Source: Porticoccus sp. (GTDB lineage: Bacteria; Pseudomonadota; Gammaproteobacteria; Pseudomonadales; Porticoccaceae). From it: a stretch of 64,000 nucleotides of DNA. Each line of letters opens with the position of its first letter. Within the stretch, counting starts at the first letter, position 1. The DNA is taken from the NCBI RefSeq assembly GCF_002707685.1, contig NZ_PANQ01000002.1, one strand, 5' to 3'. A program made the position numbers and the translations under genes. Shown here one piece after another: positions 3,768-54,354 of the stretch. The notes below the pieces were generated by a model. It did no database searches and was not told the DNA's origin. It saw only the letters and a list, made by a program, of their open reading frames with translations.

Positions 3768-3844
3768 GCACTCGTAGCTCAGCTGGATAGAGTACTCGGC
3801 TACGAACCGAGCGGTCGGAGGTTCGAATCCTCCCGAGTGCGCCA
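3768..3844 (+). tRNA. tRNA-Arg(ACG)
   Basis: 77-nt cloverleaf GCACTCG...CGAGTGCGCCA. Anticodon arm CTCGG-CTACGAA-CCGAG, T-loop GTTCGAA, encoded CCA. Confidence 0.98.
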
Positions 3845-46863: not shown

Positions 46864-46939
46864 GTCCCGTTCGTCTAGAGGCCTAGGACACCGCCCTTTC
46901 ACGGCGGTAACAGGGGTTCGACTCCCCTACGGGACGCCA
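46864..46939 (+). tRNA. tRNA-Glu(TTC)
   Basis: GTCCCGT...ACGGGACGCCA with anticodon arm CCGCC-CTTTCAC-GGCGG. Confidence 0.98.
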
Positions 46940-46962: not shown

Positions 46963-47038
46963 GCGGGAATAGCTCAGTTGGTAGAGCGCAACCTTGCCAA
47001 GGTTGAGGTCGCCGGTTCGAACCCGGTTTCCCGCTCCA
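46963..47038 (+). tRNA. tRNA-Gly(GCC), ICE integration site
   Basis: GCGGGAA...TTCCCGCTCCA with anticodon arm CAACC-TTGCCAA-GGTTG. Confidence 0.98.
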
Positions 47039-49135: not shown

Positions 49136-49804
49136 TTAGCTGTCAAAGCCTAGTCGCCCATGGGTGACCCACGGTATTGATAGGGCTCTTTCAATAAAAC
49201 GTCCATCTCTACCTCCAGGGTCCAGATTGGAGCGATGGATCAGATAGGTGGTTGTTGTTGGAGACGGGTTGGCTAAAGGGCGCCCGACGATTCCCCACGA
49301 TTGATATCGTGCCACAATTGGCGCGGGTGCGATGGTAACGCCATAATTTGCCGAAACCAGGGCCATCATGACATCGACGGTTAGGGCGGTCTGTAAGGCA
49401 TTGGGCTGCTGGTTGCCCAGCGATCTGAGAATTGTATCCAGCTCCAGAAACGAGGCTTTTCTGAAAACGGCGTCCCAATGGATGATAGTGAAGTCCATTA
49501 AATGGGCTGGCGTGACAATGGATTCTCGCCCCAATGAAGAGTGGATTGATGCGGCGACTATCCAAGCCTCCCTCCATAGTGGAACGGCTTTCCATCGATC
49601 ATTGACAATCGCGGATCGGGATATCCCGATATCGTATTGTCCGCGGCTAAATTTCTGGGATATTGATGATGTGCTCGACTCGTGAACCTGGATTTTGACG
49701 TTTGGCTCTTCGGCTCTTTGTCGCGCGAGCAGAGTTGCCAATTGAGGATGGGTTAGCGTGTCGCATAGAACGATGTGCAGGCTGCTTGAATTCTCAGTGT
49801 CCAT
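49136..49804 (-). CDS. LysR substrate-binding domain protein lacking the HTH
   Basis: Aligns by eye with the SBD of the LysR at 50206-51120. There is no room upstream for an HTH. Confidence 0.8.
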   Translation of the reverse strand: MDTENSSSLHIVLCDTLTHPQLATLLARQRAEEPNVKIQVHESSTSSISQKFSRGQYDIGISRSAIVNDRWKAVPLWREAWIVAASIHSSLGRESIVTPAHLMDFTIIHWDAVFRKASFLELDTILRSLGNQQPNALQTALTVDVMMALVSANYGVTIAPAPIVARYQSWGIVGRPLANPSPTTTTYLIHRSNLDPGGRDGRFIERALSIPWVTHGRLGFDS

Positions 49805-50205: not shown

Positions 50206-51120
50206 TTAGTCTTCTTCCATAGTGAGTTCCCCGGGAGATCGATCACTGCGACTGACCCGTTGTAGAAACCGTTCAAGTTGTTCAGACGGTTCGGTATTTG
50301 GGCGCAGTAGATAAGTGGTCAGTGTGGCCATCTCCATATCGAGTGGTCGGGGGACCACATCCGGATGTCGGTACACCTTGAGCTGGGACTCCGTGGCAAA
50401 GCCCAGTCCATAACCGGCGGCCACCAGAGTCAGCATCAAGTCGAGTGACGTGGCATGCTCGGCGACGATGGGCTCTGTCTTCACACTCCTGAGTATCTGG
50501 TCGATTTGCCGACTACACCCCTCGCAGACGTCAGGGTGACAGAGCACCAACGGATAACGCAGCAGGGCGTCCAGTGGCACATGGGTGAAAGACAGCAATG
50601 GATGTCGGGAGGGAATAACAGCGACGAGAGTATCGGCCCAAACAGCATCAACCAAAATACTTTTTTCGACGTTGTCTGTGTGGGCAAAACCGACGTCAAA
50701 AATATCGCTTTGCAGTCCCTTGATTTGTTGGGTCAGAGATCGCTCGAACAAGCGAATTTCCACATCGGGTTCCTCTTCCCTGCAAAGGGCGAGCAGCGAT
50801 GCCAAGCGCGGCTGGACGATGCCATCGGAAAGCACAATTCGCAGAGCGCCACGATAGCCGGTGGCGGCAGCTTTGACGTTATTGCGGGCCTGGTCCAAGA
50901 CGGTAAAGATCCGCTGAACATCTTCTAGGAAAACTTGGCCAGCCCATGTCAATTGAGTTCCACGGCGACTCCGCTGGAACAACAGGACATTGAGTTCTTC
51001 CTCGAGCTCCTTGATGGTGCGGGAGAGGGGAGATTGTTCAATATGCAAACGCGCTGCAGCCCGGGCGAAGTGAAGCTCTTCCGCCAATGCAAGAAAATAA
51101 CGCAGATGGCGAAGTTCCAT
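50206..51120 (-). CDS. LysR-family transcriptional regulator
   Basis: MELRHLRYFLALAEELHFARAAARLHIEQSPLSRTIKELE. Confidence 0.96.
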   Translation of the reverse strand: MELRHLRYFLALAEELHFARAAARLHIEQSPLSRTIKELEEELNVLLFQRSRRGTQLTWAGQVFLEDVQRIFTVLDQARNNVKAAATGYRGALRIVLSDGIVQPRLASLLALCREEEPDVEIRLFERSLTQQIKGLQSDIFDVGFAHTDNVEKSILVDAVWADTLVAVIPSRHPLLSFTHVPLDALLRYPLVLCHPDVCEGCSRQIDQILRSVKTEPIVAEHATSLDLMLTLVAAGYGLGFATESQLKVYRHPDVVPRPLDMEMATLTTYLLRPNTEPSEQLERFLQRVSRSDRSPGELTMEED

Positions 51121-51228: not shown

Positions 51229-51244
51229 GCGGTAGGGGTCAACG

Positions 51245-53478
51245 CTCGGGTAGGAACGGCCCATTACTGGGCCGCGCCCCCCTAAGAACCGTACGTGCGA
51301 GTTTCCCCGCATACGGCTCAAGCCTCCGCAAAGCCCTGTTCCACGAGAGCCGCCAGTTCACTTCGTCGGGTGGAGTTGTTGGCCTGTGCGGACCGATCCT
51401 GACGATCCGTGGGCAGCCTTAGCCTGTCGGCAAAGTAACCGTCCCATGCCGGATCAAACGGATTAGCTTCCGCCCTGATTTTACAATGACGGCGGATGGG
51501 AACATCGGTGGCTTTCACCAAGCGCACGGTCGTGCGGTTCCCCTTGTCGTCCGTCACTTCCGCACGGAACACCCAATCTCGCGTACCTTCGAGGACGAAG
51601 TAACGTGCTTTCACCCAGCTACGCGATTTGTTCGAGTGCCTGCGACAGGCCCAGCGCCAGAGTTGCTGCCAGATGAGGTGGTCGACCTTTCGAAAGGTCA
51701 TCTTCGCCACCTGGTTGCGGTGATAATTCGCCCATCCCCGGATGACCGGGTTGAGACGTGCTATCACATCCTCCTGCTTTGCGCCGACAGCGCTCCTGAT
51801 GATTGCCCGAACCTTGCACAAGAAGGCCTGCACATTTTTCCTTGCAGGTCTGATAAGAAGCTTCCCATCATATTTGCGCACGTTCCAGCCGAGGAAGTCG
51901 AAGCCTTCCTCAATATGCGCGATACGCGTCTTCTCATCGGATAGGGAAAGGCCCCTGCGCGACAAGAAGTCCTCGACCATCACCTTCGCTTCTTCAAGAA
52001 GGTCCTTCGACCTACCGGTGATGACGAAGTCGTCGGCATAGCGGATCAGGTGGACCTTGGTACGACGACGGTTCGGTCGCCGGGGACCAAAACGGTCCTG
52101 CAGCATCCTCTCCATCCCGTCCAGGGTCATGTTCGCAAGCGTCGGTGAGATAATACCGCCCTGCGGCGTACCCGCTTCCGTCACGAACAGCTCGCCATCC
52201 TGCATAAAGCCGGATTCCAGCCATTTCCGAAGCACCACCTTGTCCGTGGGGATGTTGGCGATGAGCCAGTCATGGCTGATGTTGTCGAAGCAACCGGCGA
52301 TGTCTGCGTCGAGAACCCAGTCCGCCGCATTCCGCAGACGCAGCGCCTTGTAGCACTGTTCGACGGCATCGCGGCTCGCTCGCTTCGGCCGAAAGCCGTA
52401 GGAGTTGGGGTCCGCTGTGGACTCCGCGACAGGGTCGAGTGCTAGCAGGTGGAGTGCCTGCATGGCCCGATCCTTCATCGTCGGAATGCCCAGCGGGCGC
52501 AGTTTTCCGTTCGCTTTCGGGATATATACCCGTCTCAGCGGCTGCGGGCGGTAGCCCCGCCGCGTAAGCGACAACATTCCTCTGGCACGTCTGCCCGGCG
52601 TGTCCCAGATTGCTCCATCGACACCGGGAGTACTCTTTCCTCGATTTTCCGTAACCCGCTTAACGGCAAGGGCCTTGCCACTTTGCGAGTGGGTCAGCAG
52701 CCATTGCAACGCTTTCACCTTGCCCCAGCGGCCTTCCCGAACTGCCTTCGCGATACGCACTTGCAGCCTTCGCACGGTTCGATCCACCCCGGCCCAATCA
52801 ATCCGGTGCCAGTCGGCCTCACCGCCGGAGGCCGCACCAGTCATGTTCATGACCATCATTTGCCTGTCCTCCTTTTCGAGGGTTCTACAAATTCTCTCGC
52901 GACGAGAGACCTGTCGGAAGTCTGCTCCCTTTCGGGCGAGGTAATATTGGCAGACCGCAACCTCTATCCACGTCGTTACAACGCGGCATTCGCTTTCTCC
53001 GACCTCGCATACCCGCACCCCCATCAACTTTCCTTGCGGTCCGCCTGCCCGTTGCCGGGCGGGGATACGGGCTTACCGTGTTTCACCTATGTAACGAAGT
53101 GGGTTAGACCCTGCCTCTTCGCCGGCGGTCATGATGTCCGTGTGCCCCCACTGAACAGAGAGGCAGCCGACCGCGCACCTTTTGGTTCAAGCCTGTCAGC
53201 ATCTTTGGCTTGTCATTCTAAACGACGTTTATCAGCAGTTCACATATGTTGGTCATACCACCCAGCCTGGCGCCCTATCCACATCGATGCTCATAGATAA
53301 TGCTAATACTTCACAGTATCGGCACGATCCGAAGACCCGGCTACGTTGTCCCGGCAGCTTCACACCGGACCGTTACCAGTCCCGCATGTGCCGGTAGGCT
53401 ACTGATGACGGAACATCAGGTTTCTCTCAAGGATTACCTCCTTTTGAAACAATTACATAGGCGACGTCAACGTCGCAC
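51245..53478 (-). mobile_element. Group II intron (IIB-like RNA), about 2234 nt, inserted at the penultimate codon boundary of tonB
   Basis: 5' GTGCG at 53478. Domain V GAGCCGTATGCGGGGAAACTCGCACGTACGGTTC at 51319-51286. Domain VI with bulged A (CCT-A-CCC). RT ORF in domain IV. Confidence 0.93.
51318..52859 (-). CDS. ltrA: Group II intron reverse transcriptase/maturase without an HNH endonuclease domain (513 aa)
   Basis: AGGAGG RBS, RPLGIPTMKDRAMQ, GTPQGGIISP, YADD and GWANYH (domain X). The ORF ends shortly after NPFDPAW, with its stop overlapping domain V. Confidence 0.95.
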   Translation of the reverse strand: MMVMNMTGAASGGEADWHRIDWAGVDRTVRRLQVRIAKAVREGRWGKVKALQWLLTHSQSGKALAVKRVTENRGKSTPGVDGAIWDTPGRRARGMLSLTRRGYRPQPLRRVYIPKANGKLRPLGIPTMKDRAMQALHLLALDPVAESTADPNSYGFRPKRASRDAVEQCYKALRLRNAADWVLDADIAGCFDNISHDWLIANIPTDKVVLRKWLESGFMQDGELFVTEAGTPQGGIISPTLANMTLDGMERMLQDRFGPRRPNRRRTKVHLIRYADDFVITGRSKDLLEEAKVMVEDFLSRRGLSLSDEKTRIAHIEEGFDFLGWNVRKYDGKLLIRPARKNVQAFLCKVRAIIRSAVGAKQEDVIARLNPVIRGWANYHRNQVAKMTFRKVDHLIWQQLWRWACRRHSNKSRSWVKARYFVLEGTRDWVFRAEVTDDKGNRTTVRLVKATDVPIRRHCKIRAEANPFDPAWDGYFADRLRLPTDRQDRSAQANNSTRRSELAALVEQGFAEA

Positions 53479-54354
53479 ATTCAAGAAGAATTCAACCGGC
53501 ACCACGAATTCGAGCGCTTCACCTTGCATCTCCACAGGAGGTTTGGGCAAGGGTTGGGCACGGTCAATCAGCGCCAAGGTTTCTTCGTCCAGCAGAGGAT
53601 ATCCCGCGCTTTGTTCGATACTTTTTGTCAGCACATTGCCTTCCCGGTCCATGGTGAAGCGCAAGTAGGCAACCCCCTCCTGCCGGTATCGGCGTGCTTG
53701 GGTGGGGTAGCTCTTGGCCTCATTGAGCTTCAACATCAGGCTGTTTTGCCAGGTGGGGATGGCGTTCGAGTTGACAGCGGGTGCGGAGACACCTTGGTTT
53801 GGCGCAGCGGCTTCTACGTCATCCTGGGGTGCATCTGGCGGTGCACTGGCTGCGCTGGCCGGTTTATCTTCGGGTGGAGTGATCTCCGGTTCTTCTTGCT
53901 GAAGCTCATTTGACGTTTGTTTTTCGGGCTTTGGTTCGGATTTCGGTTTCACCGCCACTTCCGGTTTAACCGCAGGTGGTGCCGGAGGAATTTCCGGTTC
54001 GGGTTCCTGTTGTGGCTCGGGCTCGGGGGGAGGTGCGACTTCCGCCTGCTCAGGACCGGGTGGCATATCCGGTTGTGAGGCTGGCGCCACTGGCGCGGGA
54101 GCCAGTTCGACCACCATGGCGGCGGGCGGTGGTGCATTGGTGCCGGGGTTTTGCTCCGGTATCAGCCACCAGGTCAGGGGTGCGCCGTAAGCGACCACAA
54201 CCATCAGTAGGGACGTCAGCCAGCGGAAAGTGTTGTTTTCTCTCGGGACGGGCTCGTCGTCCAGTTTGGGCGCGATGTCCGCAACGTCCGGGGAAAGTCT
54301 GCCGCTTGCCTTGACCAGCGTCAGCGTGGGTTTGCGGGCCAGGTTGTCTTTCAT
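53467..54354 (-). CDS. tonB: Energy transducer TonB (C-terminus rewritten by the intron)
   Basis: TM anchor, Pro/Glu/Lys-rich linker, and C-terminal domain YPTQARR..EG..SAGYPLLDEE..AQPLP. Confidence 0.9.
   Translation of the reverse strand: MKDNLARKPTLTLVKASGRLSPDVADIAPKLDDEPVPRENNTFRWLTSLLMVVVAYGAPLTWWLIPEQNPGTNAPPPAAMVVELAPAPVAPASQPDMPPGPEQAEVAPPPEPEPQQEPEPEIPPAPPAVKPEVAVKPKSEPKPEKQTSNELQQEEPEITPPEDKPASAASAPPDAPQDDVEAAAPNQGVSAPAVNSNAIPTWQNSLMLKLNEAKSYPTQARRYRQEGVAYLRFTMDREGNVLTKSIEQSAGYPLLDEETLALIDRAQPLPKPPVEMQGEALEFVVPVEFFLNVRR

Follow-up and report, generated by a model that had tools for sequence, protein, structure and literature searches.

Group II introns are described as ending in AY (A followed by a pyrimidine) and as having a purine at the γ position in the linker that joins domain II to domain III (J2/3) (PMC4424553, PMC4238363). 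The literature that we found mentions only "some variations" of AY, and its natural γ pairs are G-C and A-U. The penultimate A contacts G1. The pair between γ and the last intron base (γ′) is a transient one that, for exon ligation, brings the 3′ splice site to the catalytic metals (Jacquier and Michel, 1990, as cited in PMC4238363; PMC6224600). Here, we describe a group II intron that departs from these rules. It lies in a 64,000-nucleotide (nt) stretch of Porticoccus sp. contig NZ_PANQ01000002.1, which was analyzed as a whole and is called the window in the following, and it occupies 2,234 nt of the minus strand (53478..51245, GTGCG...CCCGAG), one codon ahead of the stop codon of tonB. This intact intron ends in AG instead of AY, and our comparisons support the interpretation that the last intron pair has been flipped to C53007-G51245, with the terminal base compensated at γ. 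The intron would thus end in AG because its γ–γ′ pair is C-G instead of the usual G-C or A-U; the contact is still of the Watson-Crick type, whereas γ is not the textbook purine. In the literature covered by our search, outside of which the older papers lie (Michel et al., 1989; Jacquier and Michel, 1990; Michel et al., 2007), we found no natural AG end combined with a C at γ.

EcI5 from the Escherichia coli O157:H7 plasmid pO157 (L121) is the model IIB1 intron with a reverse transcriptase of the CL1 lineage, and its exon-binding sites (EBS) EBS1, EBS2, and EBS3 are organized as for IIB1 (PMC8643678). The window intron is 75% identical to EcI5 at the nucleotide level over 616 nt of domains I to III, and both share the 5′ start GTGCGAC with the following hairpin, a J2/3 of the form x-G-A before domain III, and domains V and VI that end in ...CUACCCGAx. 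The two differ in the γ–γ′ pair, which is A-U in EcI5 (ending in GAU) and C-G in the window intron (ending in GAG), in their targets, and in the open reading frame (ORF) of the reverse transcriptase, which is longer in EcI5/pO157 (~574 amino acids) than that of the intron-encoded protein (IEP) of the window (513 amino acids, no HNH domain). Judging by these similarities, the window intron is a IIB1 ribozyme of the EcI5 family. Plasmid-borne introns of Rhizobium, Agrobacterium, Sinorhizobium, Bradyrhizobium, and Sphingomonas (L001-L006) are 75-79% identical over the full length, have a similar size (2,231-2,237 nt), and encode an endonuclease-less (En-less) IEP of 513 amino acids, but all of them end in GAC with a G at γ and have another target, with AAGGTSA as the intron-binding site (IBS) IBS1.

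RmInt1 of Sinorhizobium meliloti (class D), whose γ–γ′ and EBS3–IBS3 contacts have been tested by mutagenesis (PMC4238363), resembles the window intron in being a IIB-type intron of bacteria, in its En-less IEP, and in a 3′ end that departs from the consensus. However, RmInt1 ends in CC, so that its penultimate base deviates, its γ is a G that faces a C at γ′, and its IEP belongs to another class. Class D was rejected for the window intron because of the CC end of RmInt1 and because the strong RNA match is EcI5 (IIB1/CL1), and class B was rejected as it has been reported only in Firmicutes (PMC4424553). The specialized start/stop-codon lineage of IIB1 introns (Michel et al., 2007, as cited in PMC12584367) also homes to a conserved chromosomal housekeeping gene, beside its stop codon, where the damage to the host protein is minimal. 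That lineage has a 5′-subterminal insertion of 300-700 nt in domain I (PMC12584367) and targets groEL. The window intron differs in its target, tonB, and in that it has no such insertion, since the 620 nt upstream of its ORF are collinear with EcI5-type relatives.

The 3′ boundary of the window intron is fixed by four independent lines, namely the empty site, the end of the TonB protein, the EBS3–IBS3 contact, and the geometry of domain VI. In a closely related strain, the empty-site allele has the sequence TTCTTGAAT/CGTTGA (the slash marks the junction), and ...GAATTCTTCTTGAAT/CGTTGACCCCTACC... is found at this position in the two intron-free contigs L007 (17.9 kb, with the synteny preserved) and L008. 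The L007 flanks are 96% and 93% identical to those of the window, and 300 nt of the joined window exons align to L007 without gaps at 98.3% identity. As the insert begins and ends with a G whereas the flanking bases are T and C, the register is unambiguous, and the insert is exactly GTGCG...CCCGAG (51245..53478), in agreement with the Rfam matches RF02012 and RF00029 and with the collinearity to the six plasmid-borne relatives. Removal of this segment, as the original prediction had proposed, indeed yields TTC TTG AAT/CGT TGA (F-L-N-R-stop), and the junction in both empty sites is precisely AAT/CGT. The 5′ exon (53479..54354, minus strand) is the tonB coding sequence up to the AAT codon, as identified by Pfam TonB_C and NCBIfam tonB_Cterm, and the 3′ exon starts with the Arg and stop codons CGT TGA (51239..51244, minus strand). 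The TonB homologue encoded on L007 and L008 (P0001) is 97% identical to the window protein, has 293 instead of 295 residues, and ends in ...FFLNR, and 13 of the 14 homologues listed end in R, mostly as ...VPVEFFLNR.

Domain VI ends in ...CCT-A-CCC-GAG/CGTTGA on the minus strand, with A51246 and G51245 as the last two intron bases and the bulged A51251 as the seventh base from the end, just as had been predicted. The same geometry is found in about 80 relatives, all of which end in ...YUACCC-G-A-x. There would be no real AG end if the true 3′ splice site were in another register, after A51246, C51244, or G51243. The RF00029 alignment does contain an inserted base and reaches 51244, one base beyond the AG, and BLAST alignments to relatives stop at A51246. 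However, the empty-site allele permits only one register, the G at EBS3 predicts a C as the first exon base, the C at γ calls for a terminal G in the intron, the branch A has the same 7-nt distance to the end as in all relatives, and the TonB tails that would result are absent from the 14 homologues listed. The registers GA/G, GAGC/, and GAGCG/ each fail the empty-site, the EBS3, or the γ test, and a shifted splice site is therefore very improbable.

The partner of the terminal G was sought in 55 distinct related introns, the first 640 nt of which were aligned with MAFFT and scanned column by column without bias. Only the column of position 53007 was complementary to the last intron base in all cases (G in 48 introns, A in 4, and C in 3), whereas the next-best columns reached 87-89% and merely contain an invariant G. 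The scan thus arrived at the same γ as the original prediction, which had paired C53007 with G51245, and relatives have a G or A there that matches a C or U as their last base. In 62 distinct composite rows, γ–γ′ was G-C in 51, A-U in 6, and C-G in 5, with no mismatch, and none of 500 shuffles matched the observed pairing. When the partner was slid by one to three columns, pairing fell to 2-82% of cells, and the covariation score dropped from 0.625 to 0.00-0.16. On a neighbor-joining tree of 77 distinct introns (67 with G-C, 6 with A-U, and 4 with C-G), Fitch parsimony requires eight changes of the pair state. Our sample contained no intron with a C at γ and a C or U at the end, which includes the AC-ended relatives with a C in the 53007 column that were specifically looked for, and none with a G or A at γ and a G at the end. 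The fourth state that is possible, U-A with an AA end, was not encountered either. Other deviations of the 3′ end do occur in the family, such as GGC (L048, L078, L089), GTC (L063), or CCCAAC (L028), but there γ is still a G that pairs with the final C, and it is the penultimate or the preceding base that varies.

In the window intron, the γ at 53007 and the γ′ at 51245 are accompanied by a canonical penultimate A (51246), which is also found in 57 of the 62 composite rows, with the GGC and GTC ends as exceptions, and by the G-A that follows γ in J2/3 (53005..53006), which is invariant in these rows (all minus strand). These two J2/3 bases join the catalytic triplex of domain V. The J2/3 linker had been read as C-G-A, and C53007-G53006-A53005 do lie between the stems of domains II and III, although the linker is really about 7 nt long (AUG-CGA-G). 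A G53076-C53007 pair that would extend domain II was considered as well and rejected, as relatives cannot form it.

An artefact of sequencing or assembly is a practically negligible explanation for the AG end. The same intron sequence was found in 20 public runs (8 of these hold 99% or more of the words sampled) and in 10 metagenome contigs. All these independent copies, from the 20 runs and from TARA, JGI, and ENA assemblies, carry the paired change at 53007, in line with the original argument against a sequencing error, and we found no support for an artefact.

The AG end is not confined to the window intron, and all AG-ended relatives with a readable J2/3 (L010, L109/L112, L111, L113, and L114) have a C at γ and the J2/3 sequence C-G-A. 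A metagenome scan with the pattern GTTCTTAGGGG-N22-36-YCTACCCGAG gave 11 loci, 8 of which contain a genuine domain V; the remaining three (L115, L116, and L119) have no domain V and were discarded as chance matches. The metagenomic AG-ended introns (L109/L112, L111, L113, and L114) are placed in other subclades. The Sphingobium scionense intron L010, in contrast, resembles the window intron in that it is located in the last tonB codons (VPVEFFLR/intron/TGA) and ends in CCCGAG/TGA with a C at γ, and its IEP (P0126) is 80% identical to that of the window. It differs in its IBS3, which is a U, and in the loss of the IEP stop codon, so that the ORF runs into domains V and VI. Since L010 nests among the A-U-ended introns L100 and L120 and apart from the window intron, its C-G state probably arose separately. 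As judged by these placements, the C-G/AG state is recurrent, as Sphingobium scionense and two or more unrelated lineages from metagenomes have it too. As a side aspect, the loss of the IEP stop codon is shared by L010 (1501-3120) and L100 (340-1956), in which the ORF continues through domains V and VI (538 amino acids, with the tail ...EPDAGKLARPVLRGERP...).

The window intron belongs to a clade of introns that occupy the last tonB codons in very different bacteria. On their 5′ side, tonB is present in marine Gammaproteobacteria (the window at 53479-53500 and 51239-51244; L009:1435-1546), in Sphingobium scionense (L010:836-3120), and in Komagataeibacter (L101-L107). L100 and L120 are clade members by sequence, with the 5′ flank not on the contig. 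The 5′ exon always reads ...GTGCC.GT.GA.TT.T.. (VPVEF...), and insertion is at the stop codon. In the window, one codon separates the intron from the stop, L010 is followed immediately by TGA, and L100 is followed by a TGA triplet. We found no paper on group II introns that home to tonB. A Komagataeibacter-type intron in L108 (840-3100) has a non-tonB 5′ flank (TTTTTTATATCCGT/) with a 3′ flank as in the tonB copies, and it may represent an ectopic insertion or a rearrangement.

The pair in the tonB clade is either C-G (window, L010) or A-U (L100, L101-L108) and never the G-C of the family majority. This would fit the idea that the C-G pair is an adaptation and not neutral compensated drift, which may adjust step two of splicing, or the balance between lariats and circles, for an intron in a housekeeping gene, and it is known from RmInt1 that the identity of γ–γ′ alters fidelity and product mix (PMC4238363). 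However, introns with an AG end are found outside tonB as well (L109-L114), and none of the other columns was seen to vary in step with the pair. We therefore regard adaptation as unlikely.

Apart from the reversed pair orientation, the window intron is canonical in the penultimate A, G1, the G-A of J2/3, domains V and VI, and EBS3. The 5′ boundary motif GUGCG (53474..53478) is invariant in alignment A1 and agrees with the group II consensus GUGYG. Domain I is matched by RF02012 with 116 bits (53420-53271), and domains V and VI are matched by RF00029 with 64.6 bits (gathering score 40; 51321-51244), both on the minus strand. Domain II (53011..53072) has a 12-bp basal stem formed by 53072-53061 (GCCCGTATCCCC) and 53022-53011 (GGGGGTGCGGGT) that is kept in A1, and domain III (52913..53003) has a basal stem in which GTCGGAG (53003-52997) pairs with CTTCCGAC (52920-52913). 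The coordinates and pairings that had been noted for these two stems were all correct, and the domain III stem covaries among relatives, for example as TGTGGAG with CTTCCACA. Domain V comprises 34 nt (51286..51319) and domain VI spans 51248..51282, both according to the RF00029 alignment and the fold. The predicted fold of the two domains has -48.5 kcal/mol (z = -5.7) with A51251 bulged, and thus the domain V hairpin with its catalytic triad and 2-nt bulge and the domain VI with a bulged branch-point A that are typical of group II introns are present.

The exon contacts were assigned by column scans as well, and all of the following positions are on the minus strand. Complementarity to the first 3′ exon base is highest (91% in the 55 introns) at G53117, which is taken as EBS3 and pairs with C51244 as IBS3, a base that is also defined by the empty site. 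EBS1 (GUUCAG, 53151..53156) consists of six consecutive columns that covary (85-93%) with exon positions -1 to -6, and all six positions of IBS1 (UUGAAU, 53479..53484, the final 6 nt of the 5′ exon) pair with it, four by Watson-Crick and two by G-U pairs. EBS2 (AGAAU, 53215..53219) covaries (89-96%) with positions -9 to -13, which carry the complementary IBS2 (AUUCU, 53487..53491). Recognition of the 3′ exon by EBS3–IBS3, through an internal loop of domain ID and not by δ–δ′, and 5′ exon pairing of EBS1 and EBS2 over roughly 6 + 5 nt are as expected for IIB1. As EBS1 and EBS2 differ from those of the plasmid relatives in step with the differing target, the ribozyme appears to be tuned to tonB.

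The IEP, encoded in domain IV, is a reverse transcriptase/maturase of 513 amino acids (51318..52859, minus strand) with the Pfam domains RVT_N, RVT_1, and GIIM and a match to NCBIfam TIGR04416 of 383 bits (cut-off 300). There was no PF01844 match in the window IEP and hence no sign of the C-terminal HNH endonuclease, which is typical, albeit not universal, in CL1. Many IEP relatives of about 566 amino acids carry PF01844, and the En-less form is common to the rhizobial plasmid introns. The similarity of the RNA to EcI5, together with the IEP relatives, suggests that the IEP is of the CL1 type. The ratio of nonsynonymous to synonymous substitutions (dN/dS) is 0.17-0.24 for the window IEP against clade members and 0.17-0.29 within the clade, in AG-ended and AU-ended introns alike, and the IEP ORF is thus intact and, by this measure, under purifying selection.

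That the intron splices, and that a C-G pair works as well as G-C, we infer, and several observations weigh against this view. We saw no spliced RNA in the one metatranscriptome with the locus that the run searches revealed, the contigs of which are unspliced across both junctions; such contigs may, however, stem from DNA or from unspliced precursors, and rare forms are lost in an assembly. Moreover, the host does not need splicing. The unspliced tonB ORF (54354-53467, with TonB_C, in an exbB-exbD-tonB cluster) encounters an in-frame TGA in the first intron hairpin, so that TonB would end in FFLNVRR instead of FFLNR. The window reads GTG CGA CGT TGA at 53467-53478, and the CGTTGA at 53472-53467 duplicates the start of the 3′ exon. 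An in-frame stop in the first hairpin, which adds two or three residues, is present in every tonB-clade member with the 5′ junction on the contig (window, L009, L010, and L101). As TonB is nearly normal without splicing, selection on the host is no guarantee of ribozyme activity, and if anything keeps the ribozyme intact, it would be selection acting on the element. In addition, the window IEP was found in a single tonB context among the matches listed (10 of 22 contigs), with no sign of recent transposition. Finally, engineered γ–γ′ swaps in RmInt1 that keep Watson-Crick pairing still lowered the efficiency in vitro (PMC4238363).

It is in principle conceivable that these aspects reflect a decaying, splicing-dead intron in which the terminal C-to-G and the J2/3 G-to-C exchanges are unrelated neutral changes, tolerated because unspliced TonB is nearly normal. 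Read-through without splicing that adds only two residues, RNA contigs that were all unspliced, and the single genomic context would agree with this. However, the changed positions are precisely the two partners of a pair that is never mismatched in the 62 distinct rows, and the same double change occurred independently in other lineages. Furthermore, purifying selection acts on the IEP, the ORF of which is uninterrupted, and the EBS–IBS pairings as well as domains V and VI are all intact. For these reasons, we consider decay improbable.

We are confident that the element is instead an intact, mobile IIB1 intron with a CL1-type reverse transcriptase that retrohomed into the 3′ end of tonB and that has an ordinary choice of the 3′ splice site but a C-G pair at γ–γ′. 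In the mechanism that we envisage, an EcI5-family intron would have inserted by retrohoming, domain VI would set the 3′ site 6 nt past the bulged A, the first 3′ exon base C51244 would pair with EBS3 at G53117, and the last intron base G51245 would pair with γ at C53007. The transition from G-C or A-U to C-G would need two transversions and would have to pass through a mismatch. In RmInt1, mismatches harm the second step more than compensated swaps do, and a CC mismatch still yields lariat-derived products in vivo (PMC4238363). Both observations fit a rare but repeated crossing to C-G.

The Rfam scan revealed no second intron in the window, and the tRNA genes that it found are at 3768-3841, 46864-46936, and 46963-47035, all on the plus strand. 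Two ORFs for LysR-type regulators follow directly downstream of tonB (50206-51120 and 49136-49804, both on the minus strand), and this order is kept in the intron-free contig L007. Among the relatives, L025 has a second domain V-like motif upstream of its intron (L025:1206), and L036 has a second match to J2/3 and domain III downstream of its intron (L036:3715-3828), which suggests neighboring or nested intron copies.

The comparison of GU-AY with GU-AG is a standard item in arguments for the descent of spliceosomal introns from group II introns. The original prediction had called the end of the window intron spliceosome-like, and an AG is indeed present, but the likeness is only formal, as γ in J2/3 still recognizes the terminal G through a Watson-Crick pair. 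A γ–γ′ contact has not been reported in the spliceosome (PMC4424553). On balance, we favor the view that AG-ended introns with a reversed γ–γ′ pair are naturally active ribozymes that evolved repeatedly within IIB1/CL1. If this is true, the active site of group II introns can use a GU...AG intron without any other change, and these introns, including an undescribed clade at the tonB stop codon of Alpha- and Gammaproteobacteria, would be natural models for the question of how AY could become the spliceosomal AG. The γ–γ′ contact would then be simple Watson-Crick pairing in which either partner can be the purine, evolution could pass the mismatched intermediate repeatedly, and a terminal G alone would need no new recognition device. 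For annotation, this is a reason not to force AY at intron ends. As the mechanism would be unchanged, the finding refines known biology and does not introduce a new kind of system.

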